64,000 nt of DNA from the NCBI GenBank assembly GCA_965213625.1, contig CBDBZU010000004.1, positions 2,048,001-2,112,000 of the forward strand, given 5' to 3'. This DNA comes from a bacterium. GTDB lineage: Bacteria > UBA8248. The notes beneath the pieces are model-generated. The model was not told the origin of the DNA. It made no database searches and saw nothing but the letters and a program-made list of their open reading frames with translations. Below are positions 1 through 20,540 of the stretch, piece after piece (positions within the stretch are counted from its first letter, which is position 1; every line of letters starts with the position of its first letter). The position numbers and the translations under genes are program-made.

Positions 1-3000
1 ATTCCTCATAGTCGTTATCGGCGTGGGCGAGGAGGCCGCGCGCGCTCACCTCCATCGTCAGGCTTCCCGACGAATAGCGCAGTGAGCCGCTGACTTCGAG
101 ACCGCTTCCCGTCTCGGCGTCGCCCCCGTCGTAGCGAAGGCCGACTTCCAGCGAGGGCGTGAGCACCCCGCCTCCCAGTTTGAACTCGCGCGAGCCTTCG
201 AGGAGCACGCGGATTCGGCTCGTCTCCGCTTCAGCCGCGGCGAGGTCCGCCGCCGCTTCTGAAGTCGTGCGCGTGACGAGCAAGTCCGCGCGCAGGGCGA
301 GTTCGTACCCGCCCGTACCGGTGGCGGGAAGGAGCACGCCGCGTACCCCGGCAGCCGCCATGCGCATCTCGATGTCGGTCTCGATGTGCCGCGCGCCCTC
401 TGGCGAAAGCGTCAGATCGCCTTGCCCTTGTCCGAGCGCGCCCCAAAGCGAGAGCCGTTCGCTCACCCTGTAGCGGGCGTAGGGGTAGACGCCCATGAGC
501 GTGCTCTCCACCTCGCCCGCACAGCCGGCCTCGCACGCCCCGCTCATCCGGAACGAGCCTTCGCCCGCACTTCGCGCAAGCGCCACGCCGAAGAGCCACT
601 TGTCCCGCTCGAAGTCGATCCCCAGAGTCGCCGTGGTCACGTCGCCCTCGAGGCTGAGCGTGTCTTCCTTGCCGCTGAAGTTCGATCGCGCCCCACGGCC
701 CCAGACCGACCAGCGTGGTCCTGACTCCATTTTCTCGGAGGACGCCATGTGGAACGAACTCGCGAGCATGAACTCGCTCATCTCGATTTCGCGCCGCGTC
801 GCCTCAGCGTCCTCACCCGAAACGCCGCCTGGGCTGCCGAAAGCATTACCTGCGCCATCTCTACCGATTCCGTAATCGCCCAAGGCGAGGCGGGCGTTCG
901 GGTCCGCCGGGAGGAGGGGGTCCCGGCCCAACGCCAGGCTTTGCCCGCCGAGCACAACGCCCGTGCGTGCGCCGCGCAGCCGCTCGGCAATCGCGTCGGT
1001 CACGTGCTCCGCCGCCTCGCGCCCGAATCGCGCGAGCCAAGCCTTTGGCATCGGGTCGGTGTTCGTGATCGTCCCGATCGCGGTTCCATCGGCGATTCTG
1101 AAGCGAATGCCCTCCTTTCCGCTCGGCGCCAAAGACAGTTCGAGGCGCATCGTCTCGCTGCCTTCGTCGAGCGAGTCGTCGAGCACCGGAATCGACACCG
1201 TGCGCGTCGTCACCCCGCGAGGGAAGACCACGAACCCCGTTTCGGCCACGTAGTCGCTTCCTGCCTGCGCCGTTCCGTCGACCGTGCGGTAGTACACCGC
1301 CTCTGAGCGCTCAGGCGCTCGGTTGAAGGTCACAACGAAGTCGAGCGTGGCCTTCGGCTCCTCCTGCGCCTCCGCATCGGCCACCGAGACCGCCGGAATC
1401 CCCTGCGCCTCGGAAATCTCCGGACCGCCGACCGCGCACCGCACCCCGACGTCCTCGCTGTGGTCGCAGTTGTGGACGCCTACCGCATTGTTGTTCGCGC
1501 GTGGACAGTCGATCAGGCTCGTCTCGTTGCCCACGCACAGTAAGTCGTCCAGGTGAATCGGTCCGTCGCCTTCGCCGAAATGCGCTCGGAGAAAGCGACC
1601 GCCGTTGCCTACCGAGCCCTCCGGGAAGCCGAGCGCGCGGCACGCGACGTCCGCTTCCTCATCGGTCCAATAATCGTCGCAAACCGTTCCCCACCGGCCG
1701 CCGTAAAATATCTCGAGGCGGCCCTCATGGGGCGTATTTCCGCCCACCAGTCGCAGCATTCCACCGTCGATGTGGGTCACCCGCAGGGTATAGGTTTGCG
1801 TCGTGGTGGTGTCCTCGGCCGTCACCTTGACCTTGACGACGTTCTCGCCCATGGCAAGGTCGATCTCGAAGGTGTTTGGGCTGCTCGTATCCGCGTCGGT
1901 AAGCGCCGTATTGTCCGACGCGAAAAACGCCACGCTTGCGTCCGGGTCGCTCGTCGTCGGTGTCACCGTGATGCGCGCGACGCCGCTCTCCACCGAGGCG
2001 GTGTAGCTTGTTGTCTCGGGCGCGAACGCCTCGTTGATCGAACCGGGGCTTATCTCGAGCGCGCTCAGGGTCGCGTCGGAGATATCTTCTTCTGTGATGA
2101 TGACGGATGCGCGGCAGGGGCAGGTCGGGGAAATCAGGGAACCGGGCAACAGTTCGAGTACAACGCCAAACCGCTCGTCACCCTCGTCTTCGGCGTCGGC
2201 AACAGTCTGCACGGTCACCGTCTTCGTCGCCGAGAAGGTGTTACCGTCCGCCGTATAGTCGCCCGGTTCGACGCGCAGTATTTCTGAAATCGCCGCATAG
2301 TCGTCGGGGCTTCCCGCTGTATCCGCCCGGGCGCTAACCGAATAAATTAGGGTTTCCCTCGGCTGCGGCACGTTTGCGCCGGTCTTGGCCTTTATAGCGA
2401 CGTCCAGGCTCTCGCCCTCTCTCACAATGTAGTCGTTCTGCGCCCAGCTGACGATGAGGAGCGGGTCCGCCGCCACCATCGCCACCGTCGCCGAGTCGTC
2501 GGGCGCGGCGGCCGCCTCGTAGCCCGTCCCCACCGCGACACTCGCCGTGATGTCCCCGCTCGTCGAACCGCTGTAAGTGCTTCTGAGCTTCACCGTTGCC
2601 GAGGTCTCGTTCGCCGGAATGGTGACGCTCGGCGAAGTGTCCGAGAGATACATTACCGCCTGCGTTATCGAGAGGTTGACCGTGAGCGGGGAGGCGGAAG
2701 ACGCAGAGCGCGTCACGCGGAACTCGGGGTGCGCGATTTTCGGCGCCGCCTTTGCGTGCACCGCCTCGATAGAGACCGTCGGCGTTGCGCCTTGTTCCGA
2801 CTGGCGCACGATCGTGAGCGTATAGGTCTGCGTCGTGGTGGTATCCTCGGCCGTCACCTTGATCTTCACGACGTTTTCGCCAGTCGAGAGATCGACCTGA
2901 AACCCCTCGGTGCTCCCGTCCGCGTCGGCGAGCGTCGATTCGTCCGCCGCCCGATACGCCACACTTGCAATCGGGTCGGTCGTCGTCGGCGTCACCGTGA

Positions 3001-4732
3001 TGCGCGCAACACCGCTCTCCACCATAGCGGTGTAGCTCGTGGTCTCAGACGCGAACGTCTCGTTGATGGAGCCGGGGCTGATTTCCAACGCGCTCAGAGT
3101 CGCGTCGGAGAGGGCGTCTTCTGTGATGGTGACGAAGGCGTAGCACCCGTCGATCGAATCCGAATGGGTCGTGGGACAGGTCGGGTCTATCGGGTTTCCG
3201 CCCACATGTTGGAGTAAAGCGAAAAACCGCTCGTCCTCCTCGTCTTCCGCGTCGGCAACAGTCTGCAAGCTAACCGTCTTCGTCGTCGAGAATGCGGCGC
3301 CCTCCGCCGAATAATCGCCCGGTTCGACGCGCAGTATTTGTCCAGTCACCGAATAGTCGCTGGGGCTTTTCGCCGTGTCCCCCTCGGTTGACACTGAATA
3401 ATCAACGGACTCTCTCGGTTGTGGCACGTTCGCGCCGGTCGTGACCTTGAACGCGACGTCCAGGCTCTCGCCCTCGCGCACCGTGTAGTCGTTCTGCGCC
3501 CAGCTGACGATGAGGAGCGGGTCCGCCGCCACCATCGCCACCGTCGCCGAGTCGTTCGGCGCGGCGGCCGCCTCGTAGCCCGTCCCCACCGCGACACTCG
3601 CCGTGATGTTCCCGCTCGTCGAACCGCTGTAGGCGCTTCTGAGCTTCACAGTCGCCGAGGTCTCGTTCGCCGGAATGGTGACGCTCGGCGAAGTGTCCGA
3701 GAGATACTCGTCCGCCTGCGTAATCGAGAGGTTGACCGTGAGCGGGGAGGAGGAGGACTCGGAGCGCGTCACGCGGAACTCGGGGTGCGCGATCCTGGGC
3801 GCCGCCTTGGCGTGCACCGCCTCGATAGAGACCGTCGGCGTTGCGCCTTGTTCCGACTGGCGCACGATCGTGAGCGTATAGGTCTGCGTCGTGGTGGTAT
3901 CCTCGGCCGTCACCTTGATCTTCACGACGTTTTCGCCAGTCGAGAGATCGACCTGAAACCCCTCGGTGCTTCCGTCCGCATCGGCGAGGGGACTGCCGTT
4001 CGAATCGAGCCAGGAGATGGTTGCGCTCGAGTCAGTCGTCGCCGGCGTCACCGTGATCCGCGTGACGCCGCTCTCCACCGTGGCGGTGTAGCTCATGGTC
4101 GTCGACTCGAACGTCTCGCTGAGCGAGCCTGTGCTTATCCCCAGTGTGTTCAGGGTCGCGTCGTTCGACATGGATGCGAGGTCCGTCAGTCGAAGCGAAA
4201 CGGTTTCGTCCACGGTCCAGGAGAGGGCTGAGCCGTCCCAGGCCCACCTGCTTGTTCCCGACCCGTGGTTAGCGATGTCAGCGCTGTCGAAGTCGTATGT
4301 CTTCTCGCCGACGTACAGGGTGAGCGAGCGCAGGTTGGCCGGAAGAATCGGCCGGACGGAGAATTCGAGCCTTCCGTTGCTGCGCACGAAGACCGCATGA
4401 ACGGCGTAGGTGGCGTCGCCTTCGGTGAAGTCGTCGTCCGTGAGGACGGCGCTTTCGGAGCACCTCTCACCCGCTTCGACATCGTTGCTGCAGCCCTGAA
4501 TGCCGCCGGGGAGTTCCTTGACGGTCAGGGTCCCGGACCAGACTTGTTTCTCCGCCGCGGCCATCGCTGCGAATGTCAGGAAGAAGAAAACGGTGAGCGC
4601 CGCGAGCAGCGCCGTATTGAAGCGGCCGCCGGGCCGGGTGATGCGCGTATTACATAGTGTTTGGTGAGTGGTGTTGTTCCGGGTTTGTTCGCCTGGTTCG
4701 TCGTCGGATGTTTCGCAAGATGTGGATCCCAT
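1..4732 (-). CDS. Large autotransporter-like surface protein, 3' end beyond window edge: extended signal peptide, N-terminal domain, cadherin-like beta-sandwich and Calx-beta repeats, SRCR domain, Calx-beta, C-terminal beta-barrel
   Basis: Minus-strand frame from ATG at 4732 (RBS AGGAAGGGG upstream) reads open to position 2 in every segment I translated. It is not in the ORF track because there is no stop in the window. Motifs: ...FFFLTFAAMAAAEKQVWSGTLTV; SDATLSALEISPGSINE..F...TTSYTA.V; LRLVGGNTPHEGRLEIFYGGRWGTVCDD; TVDGTAQAGSDYVAETG; PMPKAWLARFGR; ...RGLLAHADNDYEE at the edge. Confidence 0.88.
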   Translation of the reverse strand, partial: MGSTSCETSDDEPGEQTRNNTTHQTLCNTRITRPGGRFNTALLAALTVFFFLTFAAMAAAEKQVWSGTLTVKELPGGIQGCSNDVEAGERCSESAVLTDDDFTEGDATYAVHAVFVRSNGRLEFSVRPILPANLRSLTLYVGEKTYDFDSADIANHGSGTSRWAWDGSALSWTVDETVSLRLTDLASMSNDATLNTLGISTGSLSETFESTTMSYTATVESGVTRITVTPATTDSSATISWLDSNGSPLADADGSTEGFQVDLSTGENVVKIKVTAEDTTTTQTYTLTIVRQSEQGATPTVSIEAVHAKAAPRIAHPEFRVTRSESSSSPLTVNLSITQADEYLSDTSPSVTIPANETSATVKLRSAYSGSTSGNITASVAVGTGYEAAAAPNDSATVAMVAADPLLIVSWAQNDYTVREGESLDVAFKVTTGANVPQPRESVDYSVSTEGDTAKSPSDYSVTGQILRVEPGDYSAEGAAFSTTKTVSLQTVADAEDEEDERFFALLQHVGGNPIDPTCPTTHSDSIDGCYAFVTITEDALSDATLSALEISPGSINETFASETTSYTAMVESGVARITVTPTTTDPIASVAYRAADESTLADADGSTEGFQVDLSTGENVVKIKVTAEDTTTTQTYTLTIVRQSEQGATPTVSIEAVHAKAAPKIAHPEFRVTRSASSASPLTVNLSITQAVMYLSDTSPSVTIPANETSATVKLRSTYSGSTSGDITASVAVGTGYEAAAAPDDSATVAMVAADPLLIVSWAQNDYIVREGESLDVAIKAKTGANVPQPRETLIYSVSARADTAGSPDDYAAISEILRVEPGDYTADGNTFSATKTVTVQTVADAEDEGDERFGVVLELLPGSLISPTCPCRASVIITEEDISDATLSALEISPGSINEAFAPETTSYTASVESGVARITVTPTTSDPDASVAFFASDNTALTDADTSSPNTFEIDLAMGENVVKVKVTAEDTTTTQTYTLRVTHIDGGMLRLVGGNTPHEGRLEIFYGGRWGTVCDDYWTDEEADVACRALGFPEGSVGNGGRFLRAHFGEGDGPIHLDDLLCVGNETSLIDCPRANNNAVGVHNCDHSEDVGVRCAVGGPEISEAQGIPAVSVADAEAQEEPKATLDFVVTFNRAPERSEAVYYRTVDGTAQAGSDYVAETGFVVFPRGVTTRTVSIPVLDDSLDEGSETMRLELSLAPSGKEGIRFRIADGTAIGTITNTDPMPKAWLARFGREAAEHVTDAIAERLRGARTGVVLGGQSLALGRDPLLPADPNARLALGDYGIGRDGAGNAFGSPGGVSGEDAEATRREIEMSEFMLASSFHMASSEKMESGPRWSVWGRGARSNFSGKEDTLSLEGDVTTATLGIDFERDKWLFGVALARSAGEGSFRMSGACEAGCAGEVESTLMGVYPYARYRVSERLSLWGALGQGQGDLTLSPEGARHIETDIEMRMAAAGVRGVLLPATGTGGYELALRADLLVTRTTSEAAADLAAAEAETSRIRVLLEGSREFKLGGGVLTPSLEVGLRYDGGDAETGSGLEVSGSLRYSSGSLTMEVSARGLLAHADNDYEE
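1785..4170 (-). repeat. Intragenic tandem duplication, unit ~1056 bp (about 2.3 copies)
   Basis: 2401-2910 is near-identical to 3457-3966 (offset 1056). A third copy of the TATAGGT(T/C)TGCGTCGTGGTGGT segment lies at ~1789. Confidence 0.85.
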
Positions 4733-5036
4733 GGTCTGTTCCCCTTCCTGTTGTAGCGGCGGCGGATGTGGAAGGTGGCGGCAGGAGTGAAATTTCGAGG
4801 TAGGCGGCAGGCTCGCCTTCAAGTCCAGGTGCGTCCGGCGAGGCCCGAATGGGCAAGAAAATGGTATCAGCGGAAGCGAAGAACGAATGTAAAGATTGTG
4901 TAAAGATCGTCAGGGTTTCGTAAATATCCTCGCGTTGGCGCGCCCTTGAGGAAGGGAAGCCGGCCAGTGAGGAGGTTGTTGAAAAAGCCCTCCTGGTTCG
5001 CAATTGGGTCCGATACCGGGCCTGTCCGTATGAAAT

Positions 5037-16214: not shown

Positions 16215-19200
16215 CTACCAGCGTACGGAGCCAAGCAGAGCGATGCCGTGGGAGGGTTTCCCGCCTACTCGCTCGCGGCGGTCTCCCTCGAGTCTCAGGC
16301 TCACGCGGTCGTCGACTTGCAGACGCCCGCCCACGCGATAGGTCTGGCTTCCTATGTCCGAGAGGGCAAGGCCGGCGTAGGGTTTGAAGTGGCCGCCACG
16401 GGGCGTTTCCATCCCGTAGCCCACTTCGGCTTCAAGTTGCGCGCTTGCGGTTCCTTCGCCCAGACCTGCCACGGAGGCCTGCGACCACAGACGCTCCGCC
16501 CCGCTTGCGGCGTCGCCCCAGGTGGAACCCACCTGCACGGAGAGGCCCTTTTTCGTAGTACCCCAGATGAGATGAACGGAACCTGACACGCCCATTTCGC
16601 TGAATCTGCTCTCCTCGTGCAGCAGTAAACCGCGCGCGTTCACATCGATCACCATGTCCATTGATGGGTCGAAGAATCGGAAGCCGCCGCCCAGTTCGAT
16701 ACCTCCTCCTTCTTCCGCATCGCCCTTGTCATAGCGAACGCCAATCACCAGCGAGGGCGTGATCGATGCCCCCTGGCCTATTTTGTATTCACGTGAACCC
16801 TCAAGAAGCAGACGGAAGCGGTTCGTGTTCGTATCCACCGGGAGCAGTTTGTCGCGTACCTCGTCTGCCTCAATCTCGACCACCATGACGTCGCCCTTCA
16901 CCGCGAGGTCATAGTCAATCTGGCGCGTCGGCGGGAAGAGTGCGCTGCGGAAGCCGAACGCCCCCATCCGCATCGAGATGTCGGTCTCGATTTTCTCGCC
17001 GCCGCCTTGTTCGGTCTGCACATACTCACCGTTCCCGAATCCGAACATGCTCCAGATCGTAAGGTGCTCGCTCACCGTGTAGCGAATGTAGGGATAGGCG
17101 CTGTTGAGGCGGGCCTCCACGTCGTTGTGCTGTCCGTCAATCGAGAAGTATCCCTCGCCCAGTGTGTGTGTGAGTGCAACGCCCACCATGGTGCGGCCCC
17201 ACTCGAAATCGGCCCCGAGCGTGCCTGTGGTCACGTCTCCCTTGAAAGTGGAACTGTTTTCATCTCCAAAGAAACTCGTCCTCGCGCCTCGGCCCCAGGC
17301 CGTCCATAGCCCGCCCTGGCTATTTTCCGTATTCTGCGCCGATGTGAGATGGAACGAACTCGCCATCAATAGATCGCTCATTGACATCTCGCGGTACTCG
17401 GTTGCGGAGCCGTCTCCAGCAAGACCGCCGAAGCCCAGGGTGCGGCTTGCGAGACGGGCAGTGGTAGCAAGTTCCGGGTCTTCCTGAGCGAGTGGAAGCG
17501 GAGAATCGCTGTTGAAGAAGTCCACGTACTGTCCGGCGAGCGTCATATTCGACGACTGCCTCATGGAAGGCGCTTTCAGCCGACTCTCGATCGTCTCCAC
17601 CGCCTGACTCGCCACCGTGCGCCCGAAGCGCGTAAGCCAATCATTCATCCCTTCAGATGTGTCTTTTACGTTATCTGCCTCTGTGGTCGCGCTTACAACG
17701 TCCGACCACGTGCTATGGCCTTGCGAGTTGTGCGCCCGGATGCGGTAGTGTTTCGTCGTTCCAGCGGAAAGTTCTGCGTGGGAATACGAGGTGGACGAAG
17801 CGGAAATCTGCCCGCCCAGCCCGTTCCAGCCCGATTTGCCGTTGTCGGAAACTTCCAGTTCATAGCGGGTGATGGCCGCGCCGTTATCCAGTGGTGCCGC
17901 CCAGGCAAGGTCTATCCGCGTCTGGCCGTTCGCCGTCGCGCTCAATACGGGCTTATCTGGTACGGTCGAAGTTTTGACCTCATTGCCATTGCCGCCGCCG
18001 CTATTTTCACCGTTCCCACCATTACCGCCGTTGCCACCATTACCGCCGTTGCCACCATTGCCGCCGTTGCCAACATTTCCGTCGTCGTTCCTGCCGGGGT
18101 TGATGTTCCCCCTGTTGTTGGCGCTTTGCGTGGTTGCGTTTTTGGGATTCGACCACTCGCCGGGGCCTACGGAGTTGTGCGCCCTTATCTGGTAGTACTT
18201 CCTCGTCCCTGGTGAAAGGTCAGTATGATTGTACGATCTGTCTGTAGAGGGCAGGCTGCTGTTTAGTGGCGCCCAGGAGTTGCCGTCATCGGATACTTCG
18301 AGTTCGTAGCTGGTGATGGCCATGCCGTTATTCGCTGGTTCATCCCAGGAGAGGTCGATTTTCGTCTGGCCGTTCGCCGTGGCGCGGAGCACCGGCGCGT
18401 CCGGCACGCCCACGAGGGTGGTTGCATTCTTGGGGTCGGACCATTCGCTGGGGCCTTGCGAGTTGCGCGCCAGGATGCGGTAGTACTTTTGGGTTCCGGG
18501 CGAAAGATTGGAGTGAGTGTACGATCTGGCCGTAGAGCTGATGCTGGTCGCGAGGTTCGTCCAACCGCTGTTGCCGTCGTCGGATACCTGGAGTTCATAG
18601 CGTGAGATGGACGCGCCGTTATCTTCAGGTTCATCCCAGGAGAGGTCGATTTTCGTCTGGCCGTTCGCCGTGGCAGTCAACACGGGTTTGGCCGGCACGT
18701 CCGCTTGCGTGGTCGCGTTCTTGGGATCCGACCACGGGCCGGGGCCTTTTGAGTTGCGTGCCCGTACCTGGTAGTACTTTCTCGTCCCGGGCGAAAGACC
18801 GGTATCATTGTATGTTCTGGGCGATGTGGCCAGGTTGGCGTTGAGATTCATCCAATCGTTGCCGTCGTCGGATTCTTGGAGTTCGTAGCGTGAGATGGAC
18901 GCGCCGTTATCCGCTGGTTCACTCCAGGAGAGGTCGATCTGCGTCTTACCGTTCGCCGTCGCGCTCAACACCGGCTTGCCCGGCACGCCCACGAGGGTGG
19001 TTGCATCCTTGGGGTCGGACCATTCGCTGGGGCCTTGGGAGTTGCGCGCCAGGATGCGGTAATACTTTTGGGTCCCGGGCGAAAGATTGGAGTGAGTGTA
19101 CGATCTGGCCGAAGAGCTGATGCTGGTCGCTAGGTTCGTCCAACCGCTGTTGCCGTCGTCGGATACCTGGATTTCGTAGCGGGAGATGGACGCGCCGTTA

Positions 19201-20540
19201 TCTTCAGGTTCCTCCCAGGTGAGGTCGATTTCCGTCTCTCCGTCCGCCGCCGCGTTCAACACGGGCTTGTCCGGTACGCCCGCCTGCGTGGTCGCGCTGG
19301 TGGCCCTCCATGGCCCGAACCCTACCGAGTTGTATGCCCGTATCTGGTAGTATTTCTTCGTTCCGGTGGAAAGTCCCGTATGGTTATGCGATTTGACAGA
19401 TGGGCCGTAGTTGCTCTCGAGGTTCGTCCAGTTGCTGCCATCGTCGGATACCTGGAGTTCATAACGGGTGATGTCCGCGCCGTTCGTCGCCGGTTCATCC
19501 CAGGAGAGGTCGATCTGCGTTTCGCCGTTCGGCGTCGCGCGCAGCACCGGCGCGCCCGGCACGTCCGTCTCCGTGGTCGCGTCCGCGACGTTCGACCACC
19601 CGCCGGCGCCTTTCGAGTTGTGCGCCTGTATGCGGTAGTACTTTCTCGTTCCGGGCGAAAGTCTCGTGTGGGAATAGGTGGTGGCCGAAGCTGCAAGGCT
19701 GGATGCGATATTCGTCCAGCCGGAAGTACCGTTGTCGGATACCTGAAGTGTATAGCGTGAGATGGACGCGCCGTTGTCATCCGGAGCATTCCAGGAGAGG
19801 TCGATCTGCGACTTGCCGTTCGCCGCCGCTCGCAGCACTGGCGGGTCCGGAGGGGTCGGCTCACTGCGTATCGTTATCTTGCCTCGCTCGTGTATCGGGC
19901 AGTTTGTGTCGTCCTCCCAGACCTCGTGCATGATATTTATCGGCGTTGTAATATTCTTGTGCGCCGTAAACGTGATCGTTCGCCATTCAGTCGGCTGTTC
20001 TGCATCATTCATGTTGTCCACATCGAATTCCCAGCCGACCGACGGTATCCAACTGATCATTGCGTCTTCTCGGTTGCCTGGCGGGTAGAAACCGTCCCCG
20101 CGCGCCACGCCGTTGACGAAAATTCTGACCCACCAGTTATCGGCTTTCGGTTGCCGGGTAAGCCTGATGCGGTAGGATTTGGACTCTCCCGCCCGGAGAT
20201 TTAACGAACTTACCGACCCCTCCACCTCCACGTCTCCATTCGCCGGGTTGCCGTCCCAGGGTTCGCCTGACTGCGCCAGGGAGTTTGCGCCGTAGAAGCC
20301 GGAGGCGACGAGCAGGAACGAGAGAGCGAAAGCGACGAGCGAGCGCAAGCGTCTGCCCCGATTCGTTCGGACGCTCACGAGGCGAAGGCGGGGAACTGCG
20401 CCGCTCGTAATCCTGACCAATTCGTTTTTGGGCTTTCGCACTTTCGATGAGTCCGTTCGCCGGGTTCGCTCCCGGTAAGCGGTCTCATGCTGGCGAGCCC
20501 GCCCCTCGTGGGAAGCAGAACCGTAGTTGCCGGGCGGCAA
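16215..20540 (-). CDS. Autotransporter-like surface protein with seven fibronectin type III domains
   Basis: Seven copies of P..PVL.A..(N/D)G...IDL.W..P..NG..I.RY.L..S; GNG linker; DWLTRFGRTVASQ; beta-barrel ending in W. Start codon uncertain. Confidence 0.9.
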   Translation of the reverse strand: MPPGNYGSASHEGRARQHETAYRERTRRTDSSKVRKPKNELVRITSGAVPRLRLVSVRTNRGRRLRSLVAFALSFLLVASGFYGANSLAQSGEPWDGNPANGDVEVEGSVSSLNLRAGESKSYRIRLTRQPKADNWWVRIFVNGVARGDGFYPPGNREDAMISWIPSVGWEFDVDNMNDAEQPTEWRTITFTAHKNITTPINIMHEVWEDDTNCPIHERGKITIRSEPTPPDPPVLRAAANGKSQIDLSWNAPDDNGASISRYTLQVSDNGTSGWTNIASSLAASATTYSHTRLSPGTRKYYRIQAHNSKGAGGWSNVADATTETDVPGAPVLRATPNGETQIDLSWDEPATNGADITRYELQVSDDGSNWTNLESNYGPSVKSHNHTGLSTGTKKYYQIRAYNSVGFGPWRATSATTQAGVPDKPVLNAAADGETEIDLTWEEPEDNGASISRYEIQVSDDGNSGWTNLATSISSSARSYTHSNLSPGTQKYYRILARNSQGPSEWSDPKDATTLVGVPGKPVLSATANGKTQIDLSWSEPADNGASISRYELQESDDGNDWMNLNANLATSPRTYNDTGLSPGTRKYYQVRARNSKGPGPWSDPKNATTQADVPAKPVLTATANGQTKIDLSWDEPEDNGASISRYELQVSDDGNSGWTNLATSISSTARSYTHSNLSPGTQKYYRILARNSQGPSEWSDPKNATTLVGVPDAPVLRATANGQTKIDLSWDEPANNGMAITSYELEVSDDGNSWAPLNSSLPSTDRSYNHTDLSPGTRKYYQIRAHNSVGPGEWSNPKNATTQSANNRGNINPGRNDDGNVGNGGNGGNGGNGGNGGNGGNGENSGGGNGNEVKTSTVPDKPVLSATANGQTRIDLAWAAPLDNGAAITRYELEVSDNGKSGWNGLGGQISASSTSYSHAELSAGTTKHYRIRAHNSQGHSTWSDVVSATTEADNVKDTSEGMNDWLTRFGRTVASQAVETIESRLKAPSMRQSSNMTLAGQYVDFFNSDSPLPLAQEDPELATTARLASRTLGFGGLAGDGSATEYREMSMSDLLMASSFHLTSAQNTENSQGGLWTAWGRGARTSFFGDENSSTFKGDVTTGTLGADFEWGRTMVGVALTHTLGEGYFSIDGQHNDVEARLNSAYPYIRYTVSEHLTIWSMFGFGNGEYVQTEQGGGEKIETDISMRMGAFGFRSALFPPTRQIDYDLAVKGDVMVVEIEADEVRDKLLPVDTNTNRFRLLLEGSREYKIGQGASITPSLVIGVRYDKGDAEEGGGIELGGGFRFFDPSMDMVIDVNARGLLLHEESRFSEMGVSGSVHLIWGTTKKGLSVQVGSTWGDAASGAERLWSQASVAGLGEGTASAQLEAEVGYGMETPRGGHFKPYAGLALSDIGSQTYRVGGRLQVDDRVSLRLEGDRRERVGGKPSHGIALLGSVRW
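18008..18073 (-). repeat. 9-bp microsatellite encoding (Gly-Asn-Gly)n linker
   Basis: Alternating CCACCATTA/CCGCCGTTG units; protein VGNGGNGGNGGNGGNGGNGGNGE. Confidence 0.85.

Follow-up and report, generated by a model that had tools for sequence, protein, structure and literature searches.

An animal-type SRCR domain in a predicted autotransporter of a UBA8248 bacterium

A scavenger receptor cysteine-rich (SRCR) domain of 107 residues is encoded on the minus strand, at positions 1436 to 1756, of a 64,000-nucleotide stretch of the bacterial genome assembly GCA_965213625.1 (lineage UBA8248). This stretch, called the window here, corresponds to positions 2048001-2112000 of the 4.13-Mb contig CBDBZU010000004.1 (abbreviated C4; C4:2048001-2112000). 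Judged from its sequence, the domain is a true group A SRCR module, and the gene that carries it is real, intact, bacterial DNA. We read the SRCR domain as a putative working cation-dependent binding module and the predicted protein around it as a modular adhesin. Our preferred reading, to which we give a probability of roughly 60%, is that the gene codes for a large surface protein of a sponge-associated bacterium, similar to type Va autotransporters, in which the SRCR domain acts as a calcium-dependent adhesion module.

The SRCR domain and the gene that encodes it

The 107-residue peptide that an earlier note on this DNA had put forward as a complete SRCR domain is the letter-for-letter translation of window:1436-1756, minus strand. 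A search with the Pfam SRCR profile, suggested in the same note, gave a match well above the curated cut-off of 26.1 bits: PF00530 recognized the peptide alone with 97 bits (E 8.6e-28) and the same segment within its long open reading frame (ORF) with 91 bits (E 6.3e-26). The match spans profile positions 1-99 of 100, and the domain is complete as claimed. Its assignment to the six-cysteine group A also holds. In printed alignments the six cysteines coincide with six of the eight cysteines of CD163 SRCR, and the other two CD163 cysteine positions are occupied by His10 and Phe44 in the peptide, which gives the group A pattern (groups A and B as defined in the accessible part of PMC10855680). 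Relative to CD163 there are two small loop insertions, one of 4 residues after the third-cysteine region and one of 3 residues before the fifth cysteine. The expected disulfide pairs, which we take to be those of SRCR domains in general, link the first with the fifth, the second with the sixth and the third with the fourth of the six cysteines. When the peptide was compared to solved structures by sequence search, it matched neurotrypsin (110.9 bits), MSR1 (101.8), Mac-2 binding protein (M2BP; 91.4), DMBT1 (~87) and MARCO (76.9), as well as CD163, LOXL2 and SCARA5. Bacterial SRCR domains share the cysteine pattern: in a non-redundant set of 43, every one of the six cysteines is found in 42-43 members, and no Cys was tallied at the two extra group B positions.

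The domain lies inside a minus-strand ORF (2..4822) whose 3′ end is open at the window start; in the genome, the stop codon is found 379 bases before window position 1. The ORF is unbroken and has 1733 codons counted from a TTG or 1703 codons from the ATG at window 4732. An in-frame stop upstream, which the earlier note had named as an observation that would undermine its proposal, was not found, and the frame is open through the SRCR segment. The absence of the gene from the ORF track supplied with the window, as stated in the earlier note, is probably due to its open end at the window edge, because ORFs running off the end of a window are skipped by default listings.

The best-scoring database matches of the domain are animal proteins and the genome has an estimated contamination of 5.16%. 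Both would fit an artefact, either animal DNA misjoined to a bacterial contig or a contaminated bin, to which we nevertheless attach next to no probability. The SRCR segment stands in frame within the 1703-codon ORF on a 4.13-Mb contig, and the chimeric join with host DNA that the earlier note had considered was not seen. In each of three samples a single short-read contig (5029, 3880 and 4192 bases, respectively) covers window positions 1-2457 with 0 differences and crosses both SRCR borders; the contigs of these samples break only at the ~1-kb internal repeats of the gene. The four runs obtained from the three samples, which belong to one study, contain 96% of the sampled sequence words; the contigs compared are from three of these runs, one for each sample. 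Runs with small shares of the words (X5 and X7-X22) do not enter into the habitat reading. The samples are not fully independent, because one of them could have supplied the assembly itself. A run of another study (X6, labelled sponge metagenome) contains a diverged relative that includes the SRCR part and has the same arrangement; ~8-12% of its aligned bases differ. Orthologues that are 97% and 86% identical over the C-terminal 604 residues also speak against an artefact, as does base composition: the SRCR segment has a GC content of 0.645 and a GC content at third codon positions (GC3) of 0.766, to be compared with 0.65 and 0.809 in the rest of the gene. A recent transfer of the domain from the host was considered separately and rejected, its GC and GC3 being native to the genome. 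No RNA run was found among the 23 runs listed as containing the gene sequence. The relative in run X6 has 694 extra bases between the SRCR domain and the last Calx-beta domain (window 1398-1421) and lacks 1061 bases that correspond to one repeat module (window 2650-3712). These insertions and deletions imply that module number and content vary between close relatives.

The organization of the gene, from its 5′ end, is as follows (aa, amino acid positions counted from the ATG).

4739..4748, minus strand: purine-rich Shine-Dalgarno-like stretch GGAAGGGGAA, read by eye, ending 6 bases before the ATG
4553..4732, minus strand: likely start ATG (4730-4732) and long signal-peptide-like N-terminus (aa 1-60), read from the sequence as a basic stretch, the hydrophobic run ALLAALTVFFFLTFAAMAAA, AAA and EKQ
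4181..4552, minus strand: N-terminal (distal) domain of ~124 aa (aa 61-184) with one close cysteine pair
3116..4162, minus strand: repeat module 1 (aa 191-539), composed of cadherin-like domain 1 (3866-4162), segment X1 (3527-3844) and Calx-beta domain 1 (3116-3523)
2087..3106, minus strand: repeat module 2 (aa 543-882), composed of cadherin-like domain 2 (2810-3106), segment X2 (2471-2788) and Calx-beta domain 2 (2087-2467)
1778..2077, minus strand: cadherin-like beta-sandwich domain 3 (aa 886-985), PF12733 62.7 bits when scanned alone
1436..1756, minus strand: SRCR domain with group A pattern (aa 993-1099), cysteines at aa 1018, 1031, 1066, 1076, 1089 and 1099
1055..1399, minus strand: Calx-beta domain 3 (aa 1112-1226), best PF03160 stretch at aa 1131-1207, adjoining the linker
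971..1054, minus strand: linker motif PMPKAWLARFGREAAEHVTDAIAERLRG between passenger and barrel (aa 1227-1254)
1..760 and the 379 bases before the window, minus strand: C-terminal outer-membrane beta-barrel, predicted (aa ~1325-1703), protein end ...LLRCSRRW

The long N-terminal extension of 60 residues is conserved in three orthologues (P0123, P0124, P0243). No Pfam family was found at E <= 0.01 for the N-terminal domain, nor for segments X1 and X2, which have ~106 aa each. Modules 1 and 2 are 77% identical at the protein level and their DNA repeats are spaced by 1029-1056 nt. The best PF12733 stretch of the protein is found in module 1 (aa 200-292). PF03160 (Calx-beta) matches the whole protein with 85.5 bits, and the Calx-beta segments of modules 1 and 2 scanned alone give 25.5 and 24.3 bits, respectively; the scan of the whole protein with NCBIfam yielded just a sub-threshold Calx-type match. 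The linker residues W8, L9, R11, F12, G13 and R14 are invariant across nine aligned paralogous translocator modules, and the linker would form the pore-spanning helix. The neighbours of the gene are ordinary bacterial genes, a further sign that the DNA is bacterial. On one side, they code for a nuclease, MsrA, an HD/OB protein, a DeoC aldolase, a zinc alcohol dehydrogenase, RecD2 and MutL; on the other side, for an aminotransferase and an MFS transporter.

The earlier note had described the carrier of the domain as an autotransporter, a claim that stands for the C-terminal part of the protein. PF03797 was found there with 40.3 bits (E 3.9e-10; cut-off 26) when the last 479 aa were scanned, PF13505 (OMP_b-brl) matches the same segment with 29 bits, and PF03797 also matches the protein as truncated by the window (28.6 bits). 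The claim is not borne out by the scan of the full-length protein (1703 residues), in which PF03797 is not listed. The terminal residue is an aromatic Trp. No NCBIfam translocator match was obtained for the protein studied; its paralogue C (see next section) matches TIGR01414 with 21 bits (cut-off 16) and has no PF03797 match. With the caveat on the full-length scan, we file the protein as a putative divergent monomeric (type Va-like) autotransporter. A side observation is that the translocator of this family may escape automated annotation, PF03797 being listed for the truncated protein and for the C-terminus only.

Paralogues, distribution and origin

Three ORFs of the genome carry SRCR, and the C-terminal translocator module is present in 10 full copies and 2 fragments. 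The passengers of the paralogues feature leucine-rich repeats (LRR), seven fibronectin III (fn3) domains together with a discoidin-like domain (in one copy), Cache, Calx-beta, true cadherin and SRCR domains. The same diversity is seen beyond this genome. The C-terminal 604 residues of the protein found 2137 relatives at E <= 0.001 (8000 candidates scored); SRCR is present in 25 of the 120 relatives listed, with 1-3 copies each, and in 12 of these 25 the first SRCR starts less than 130 residues from the N-terminus. An exhaustive search with the last 479 residues gave 8165 representative clusters at E <= 0.001, of which 3904 at E <= 1e-30. Nearly all of the 150 top representatives listed have the translocator match at their C-terminal end or close to it, and SRCR is present in nine of these 150. 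Domain order and copy number vary widely among the homologues. To all appearance SRCR is one exchangeable cassette on a common autotransporter chassis.

Several features of the paralogues deserve mention in their own right. A second autotransporter, belonging to the same translocator family, is encoded 11 kb away (window 16215-20540, minus strand), with seven fn3 domains, an F5/8 type C (discoidin-like) match and PF03797 at 33.8 bits on its C-terminus. Paralogue C (C4:220884-227375, plus strand) is a 2163-codon ORF in which SRCR is the first domain after the signal sequence, i.e., at the distal tip. The passenger of paralogue B (C4:3420161-3426721, minus strand) contains SRCR, fibronectin III, true cadherin and Calx-beta domains; a single in-frame TGA is found in its linker (...ADAVME*FRGG), at a position occupied by Arg in the protein studied here, and an intact barrel continues in the same frame. 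Possible explanations of this TGA are a nonsense mutation, an error of sequencing and codon recoding. Judged by eye, paralogues B and C seem to contain segments similar to the N-terminal domain. The frames upstream of four autotransporter paralogues (C4 8267-13051, 46531-51324, 193024-198105 and 3506911-3512154) start near-identically (MKTLS.F.RGWKKLCESGYRF...) and continue with AEPSR repeats; the shared stretch may be translated or may be a repeated upstream element.

The rarity of SRCR in bacteria, stated in the earlier note, is confirmed. PF00530 was found in none of 14 well-known control genomes and in six of 51 genomes of this phylum (6/41 in the first sample). All six belong to the genus of the window, where SRCR is present in 6 of 23 species genomes, this genome included; none was found in the 28 genomes outside the genus. 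A pattern scan over one genome per species (185,579 species) revealed 50 loci encoding relatives of the SRCR domain, a lower bound because one peptide pattern was used. The titles of their records name Nitrospinota, Nitrospinaceae, Nitrospirales, Alpha- and Gammaproteobacteria, Pseudomonadales, Paracoccaceae, Azotimanducaceae, Dehalococcoidia, Caldilineaceae, Gemmatimonadetes, Poriferihabitaceae, Spirochaetia, Binatia, Bdellovibrionales, Myxococcales, Polyangiaceae, Bradymonadia and Deltaproteobacteria. The loci have 1-7 SRCR domains per ORF, and a translocator module lies within 3 kb in three of the 50. SRCR, though rare in bacteria, is also present in other lineages and outside sponges. Such genes already have traces in public records. 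A cluster mate of the closest named orthologue, from a Nitrospinota bacterium, is called by NCBI 'cadherin-like beta sandwich domain-containing protein', a name without SRCR. Supplementary file 1 of PMC8163846 has an entry for PF00530 with the values 0.090 for 'sponge' and 0 for 'seawater' and a listed p of 1, in unlabelled columns; in our own reading these figures are mean copies per assembled genome. Along with the relative in run X6, we take this entry as pointing to sponges as the habitat.

The domain was called animal-type in the earlier note. Its closest matches are indeed invertebrate SRCRs, with 41-56% identity to the animal proteins listed, a ranking in which the many copies of animal multi-SRCR proteins raise their position. 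The closest single animal domain comes from a crinoid (55%); the nearest bacterial domains, outside the own orthologues, are 60-66% identical. Trees were built, and an approximately unbiased (AU) test was carried out, on 101 alignment columns, after removal of domains covering less than 85% of the SRCR profile, of one bacterial duplicate and of any domains in excess of three for each animal protein. The bacterial label needs 6 changes in a FastTree tree of 403 rows, 5 changes in an IQ-TREE quick tree of 101 rows, in which the bacterial domains form about five groups, and 17 changes in a FastTree tree of 488 rows (128 bacterial). Well-supported branches force just one change in all three trees, and a single bacterial clade is not rejected by the AU test (p 0.426, log-likelihood difference 5.74). 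The phylogeny with metazoan and bacterial SRCRs that the earlier note had proposed thus settles neither donor, nor direction, nor number of transfers, and to read its 'host-like' as captured from the host would go beyond these trees.

In the IQ-TREE quick tree the group of this domain clusters with Halichondria, Ephydatia and crinoid domains (SH-like approximate likelihood ratio test, SH-aLRT, 88; weakly supported), together with a second bacterial group (P0168, P0183, P0187, P0189). This cluster is one of the arguments for a role in mimicry, in which the SRCR domain would copy host receptors as a 'self-like' domain, or soak up their ligands, so that sponge cells neither recognize nor digest the bacterium. 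The response of sponge SRCR genes to symbionts, reported in the accessible part of PMC5845141, goes in the same direction. We hold mimicry to be unlikely: support for the sponge cluster is weak and identity to the nearest animal domain reaches only 55%, the base composition is fully bacterial with no sign of recent capture from a host, SRCR is present in only 6 of 23 congeners and also in bacteria of non-sponge sources, and a cadherin-type protein had no effect in the published sponge assay (PMC13747020).

Ligand-binding site, proposed role and objections

A cation-dependent ligand-binding site has been dissected in SRCR8 of DMBT1. According to the accessible part of PMC7043408, site 2 consists of D1019, D1020 and E1086 and site 3 of D1020, D1058, D1059 and N1081; the replacements D1019A and D1020A abolish binding to all ligands tested; and DMBT1 SRCR domains bind bacterial surface proteins and anionic ligands of the lipopolysaccharide (LPS) type through the same cation site. 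The counterparts of sites 2 and 3 in the 107-aa peptide are all present (D27, D28, D70, D71, N96 and E101), a correspondence based on motif and spacing, with the loop insertions allowed for, and not on structure. Among the 43 non-redundant bacterial domains D28 is kept in 42, D70 in 43, N96 in 41 and E101 in 38; D27 is kept in 28 and so is D71, with Asn at the latter position in 14 more. Because this acidic Asp/Asn/Glu cluster is kept, the most likely job of the domain would be cation-dependent ligand binding.

Selection was estimated from one pair only, with the orthologue in genome G020. The ratio of nonsynonymous to synonymous substitution rates (dN/dS) is 0.20 for SRCR (104 codons, 11 replacements, dS 0.34) and 0.29 and 0.43 for its flanks. 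The lower value within the domain argues against SRCR being a spacer or a decaying cassette, i.e., a rigid bead of the stalk shuffled in by recombination, that either lacks a ligand or is in the course of being lost. So does the retention of the six cysteines and the six cation-site residues here, most of which are also kept across the 43 bacterial domains. The membrane-proximal position of the domain, the wide variation of domain order and copy number among homologues and the in-frame TGA of paralogue B would all suit a spacer; we regard it as very unlikely.

Mimicry or adhesion, the two roles named in the earlier note, are suggested by the domain content. The adhesin reading agrees with the accessible part of PMC10947273, in which cadherin and fibronectin III proteins of sponge symbionts are proposed to serve in attachment. 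We infer surface display, disulfide formation, calcium dependence and the type of ligand and, from the protein family, the following route. The protein would first be exported by the Sec pathway and its C-terminal barrel would then insert in the outer membrane. The passenger would be threaded out and stay attached as a string of beta-sandwich domains which, from the distal end, would consist of the N-terminal domain, the two modules (cadherin-like, X, Calx-beta), cadherin-like domain 3, SRCR and the last Calx-beta domain. The SRCR domain might bind repetitive anionic ligands in a cation-dependent manner: sulfated or phosphorylated glycans, components of the sponge matrix, or the surfaces of other microbes. 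It would be one cassette in a modular adhesin family that keeps the cell attached inside its host.

Binding between microbes could also be the sole function. SRCR would then recognize bacterial surface polymers when cells co-aggregate, form biofilms or meet prey or competitors, and would not act on the host directly. ORFs with 1-7 SRCR domains occur in Bdellovibrionales, Myxococcales, Polyangiaceae and Bradymonadia, some of them from lake or groundwater. These lineages are mostly predatory. The bacterial and LPS-like ligands of DMBT1, bound through the same cation site, also favour this possibility. It is made improbable, in our view, by the restriction of SRCR to one genus within the phylum (6/51 genomes), by the presence of the relative in a sponge metagenome run, by the PMC8163846 table, which lists PF00530 for sponge-derived and not for seawater-derived genomes, and by the cadherin, fn3 and LRR domains of the paralogues, which are regarded as host-directed in the sponge literature (accessible part of PMC10947273).

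Returning to the calcium-dependent adhesin of a sponge-associated bacterium, several points weigh against it. The barrel is divergent by the profile searches, its Pfam match being lost in the full-length scan, and a profile of nine paralogous C-terminal modules found 0 PDB sequences at E <= 1 by sequence search. The SRCR domain is membrane-proximal, ~130 residues ahead of the linker, which is an unfavourable location for an adhesive tip. It is present in 6 of 23 congeneric species genomes only, which suggests an accessory cassette and not a requirement of the lifestyle. Some SRCR loci come from groundwater and lake assemblies, and others from Bdellovibrionales, Myxococcales and Bradymonadia; a sponge-specific role does not explain these. 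A strictly host-directed reading is weakened by the position near the membrane, together with the uneven distribution within the genus and the existence of SRCR in bacteria from outside sponges. The cadherin-type adhesin that had no effect in the published sponge assay, the sole one tested (PMC13747020), counts on the same side.

Export is a further difficulty. Disulfide-bonded passengers (CtxB, aprotinin) block autotransporter export unless oxidation is prevented (accessible part of PMC1533851). The cysteine pairs of the protein outside SRCR are 2-11 residues apart; two of the expected SRCR pairs are long-range, ~70 residues apart. Six DSBA-family matches were found in the genome, one of them exported and with a CGFC motif, which makes periplasmic oxidation plausible and hence a problem for export. 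There are two Thioredoxin_4 matches, and no DsbB or VKOR was found in the genome (96.6% complete). Independently of the export question, four of the six DSBA-family matches have one in-frame TGA each (C4:3636235-3636789, 2987909-2988472, 3609336-3609791 and 3655067-3655546); these genes may code for selenocysteine-containing thiol oxidoreductases. Should the protein prove to be displayed, it would offer a natural example in which to study the limit of autotransporters on long-range disulfide-rich domains. A three-disulfide domain would have to pass an autotransporter, which textbook experiments lead one to expect to fail.

Relation to published systems

No paper describing SRCR in bacterial or symbiont proteins was found in a literature search made without subscription journals and most supplements, and the main texts of PMC8163846 and PMC11706023 do not contain the term 'SRCR' (0 occurrences). 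Bacterial SRCR genes seem to be visible in public data, where a protein collection tags homologues with PF00530, and yet not to be described in print. In the accessible parts of the respective papers, sponge reviews treat SRCR as a host receptor (PMC5845141) and the acquisition of SRCR by lysyl oxidases is called an animal-specific feature (PMC4448552). Contrary to the latter description, SRCR also occurs outside animals.

Part of the ability of sponges to distinguish symbionts from food is attributed to their greatly expanded SRCR receptor families, and how the distinction is made is an open question (PMC13747020; accessible part of PMC5845141). A symbiont SRCR whose ligand-site residues are intact by motif is a testable candidate for the bacterial side of this sponge-symbiont dialogue. 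The domain is small and could be expressed alone, and a binding-mutation test has been published (accessible part of PMC7043408). A bolder proposal, which we consider speculative and unlikely to be correct as a whole, is that SRCR represents an unrecognized kind of surface domain in symbionts, acquired in one or a few events from early-animal (sponge-type) SRCR genes and spread between unrelated sponge bacteria on a shared autotransporter chassis, which engages the calcium-dependent ligands of host SRCR as a 'self' badge or decoy. Were this true, SRCR would decide whether the sponge keeps or eats the bacterium.

What is new in the protein is the combination: known kinds, an autotransporter adhesin and a eukaryotic-like symbiont protein, with a passenger domain that was not found described in print. 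Its resemblance to animal group A SRCR domains (MARCO, SR-AI/MSR1, Mac-2 binding protein, LOXL2, neurotrypsin and the expansions of sponges and sea urchins) comprises a full PF00530 domain, sequence matches of 77-111 bits, six shared cysteine positions without the two group B extras and 41-56% identity to invertebrate and vertebrate proteins. The carrier differs, since animal SRCR receptors are collagenous, transmembrane or secreted, whereas the domain here is part of a predicted bacterial outer-membrane protein. The gene also differs from animal SRCR genes in being intron-free and of bacterial base composition. With DMBT1/SALSA the domain shares two Asp-Asp pairs, one following the first shared cysteine and the other preceding the third, as well as an Asn that precedes the fifth and a Glu five residues further on. 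DMBT1 domains, in contrast, belong to group B, with eight cysteines instead of the six found here, and D1023 and D1026 of their buried site 1 correspond to Thr and Glu in the peptide studied here.

Eukaryotic-like proteins of sponge symbionts (ankyrin, TPR, NHL, LRR, fibronectin III, cadherin) are comparable in having an animal-typical domain in a sponge-associated lineage, and LRR, fn3 and cadherin domains are found in the paralogues described above. The classes named in PMC13747020 and in the accessible part of PMC10947273 do not include SRCR. In the latter, cadherin and fn3 proteins are presented as attachment factors laterally shared between symbionts. The classes that were tested and affect phagocytosis are intracellular-type repeats and not surface adhesins (PMC13747020).

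The likeness to classical type Va autotransporters lies in the order of a signal-peptide-like N-terminus, passenger, conserved linker, C-terminal PF03797 barrel and terminal aromatic residue. Examples of such monomeric adhesins are AIDA-I, Ag43, pertactin and IcsA. Passengers of classical autotransporter adhesins are beta-helices; the predicted passenger here is instead a chain of beta-sandwich domains with a disulfide-rich SRCR. The unit formed by Calx-beta, the 'PMPKAWLARFGR' motif and the barrel further sets the protein apart from the classical autotransporters, as a separate large subfamily with 3904 clusters at E <= 1e-30.

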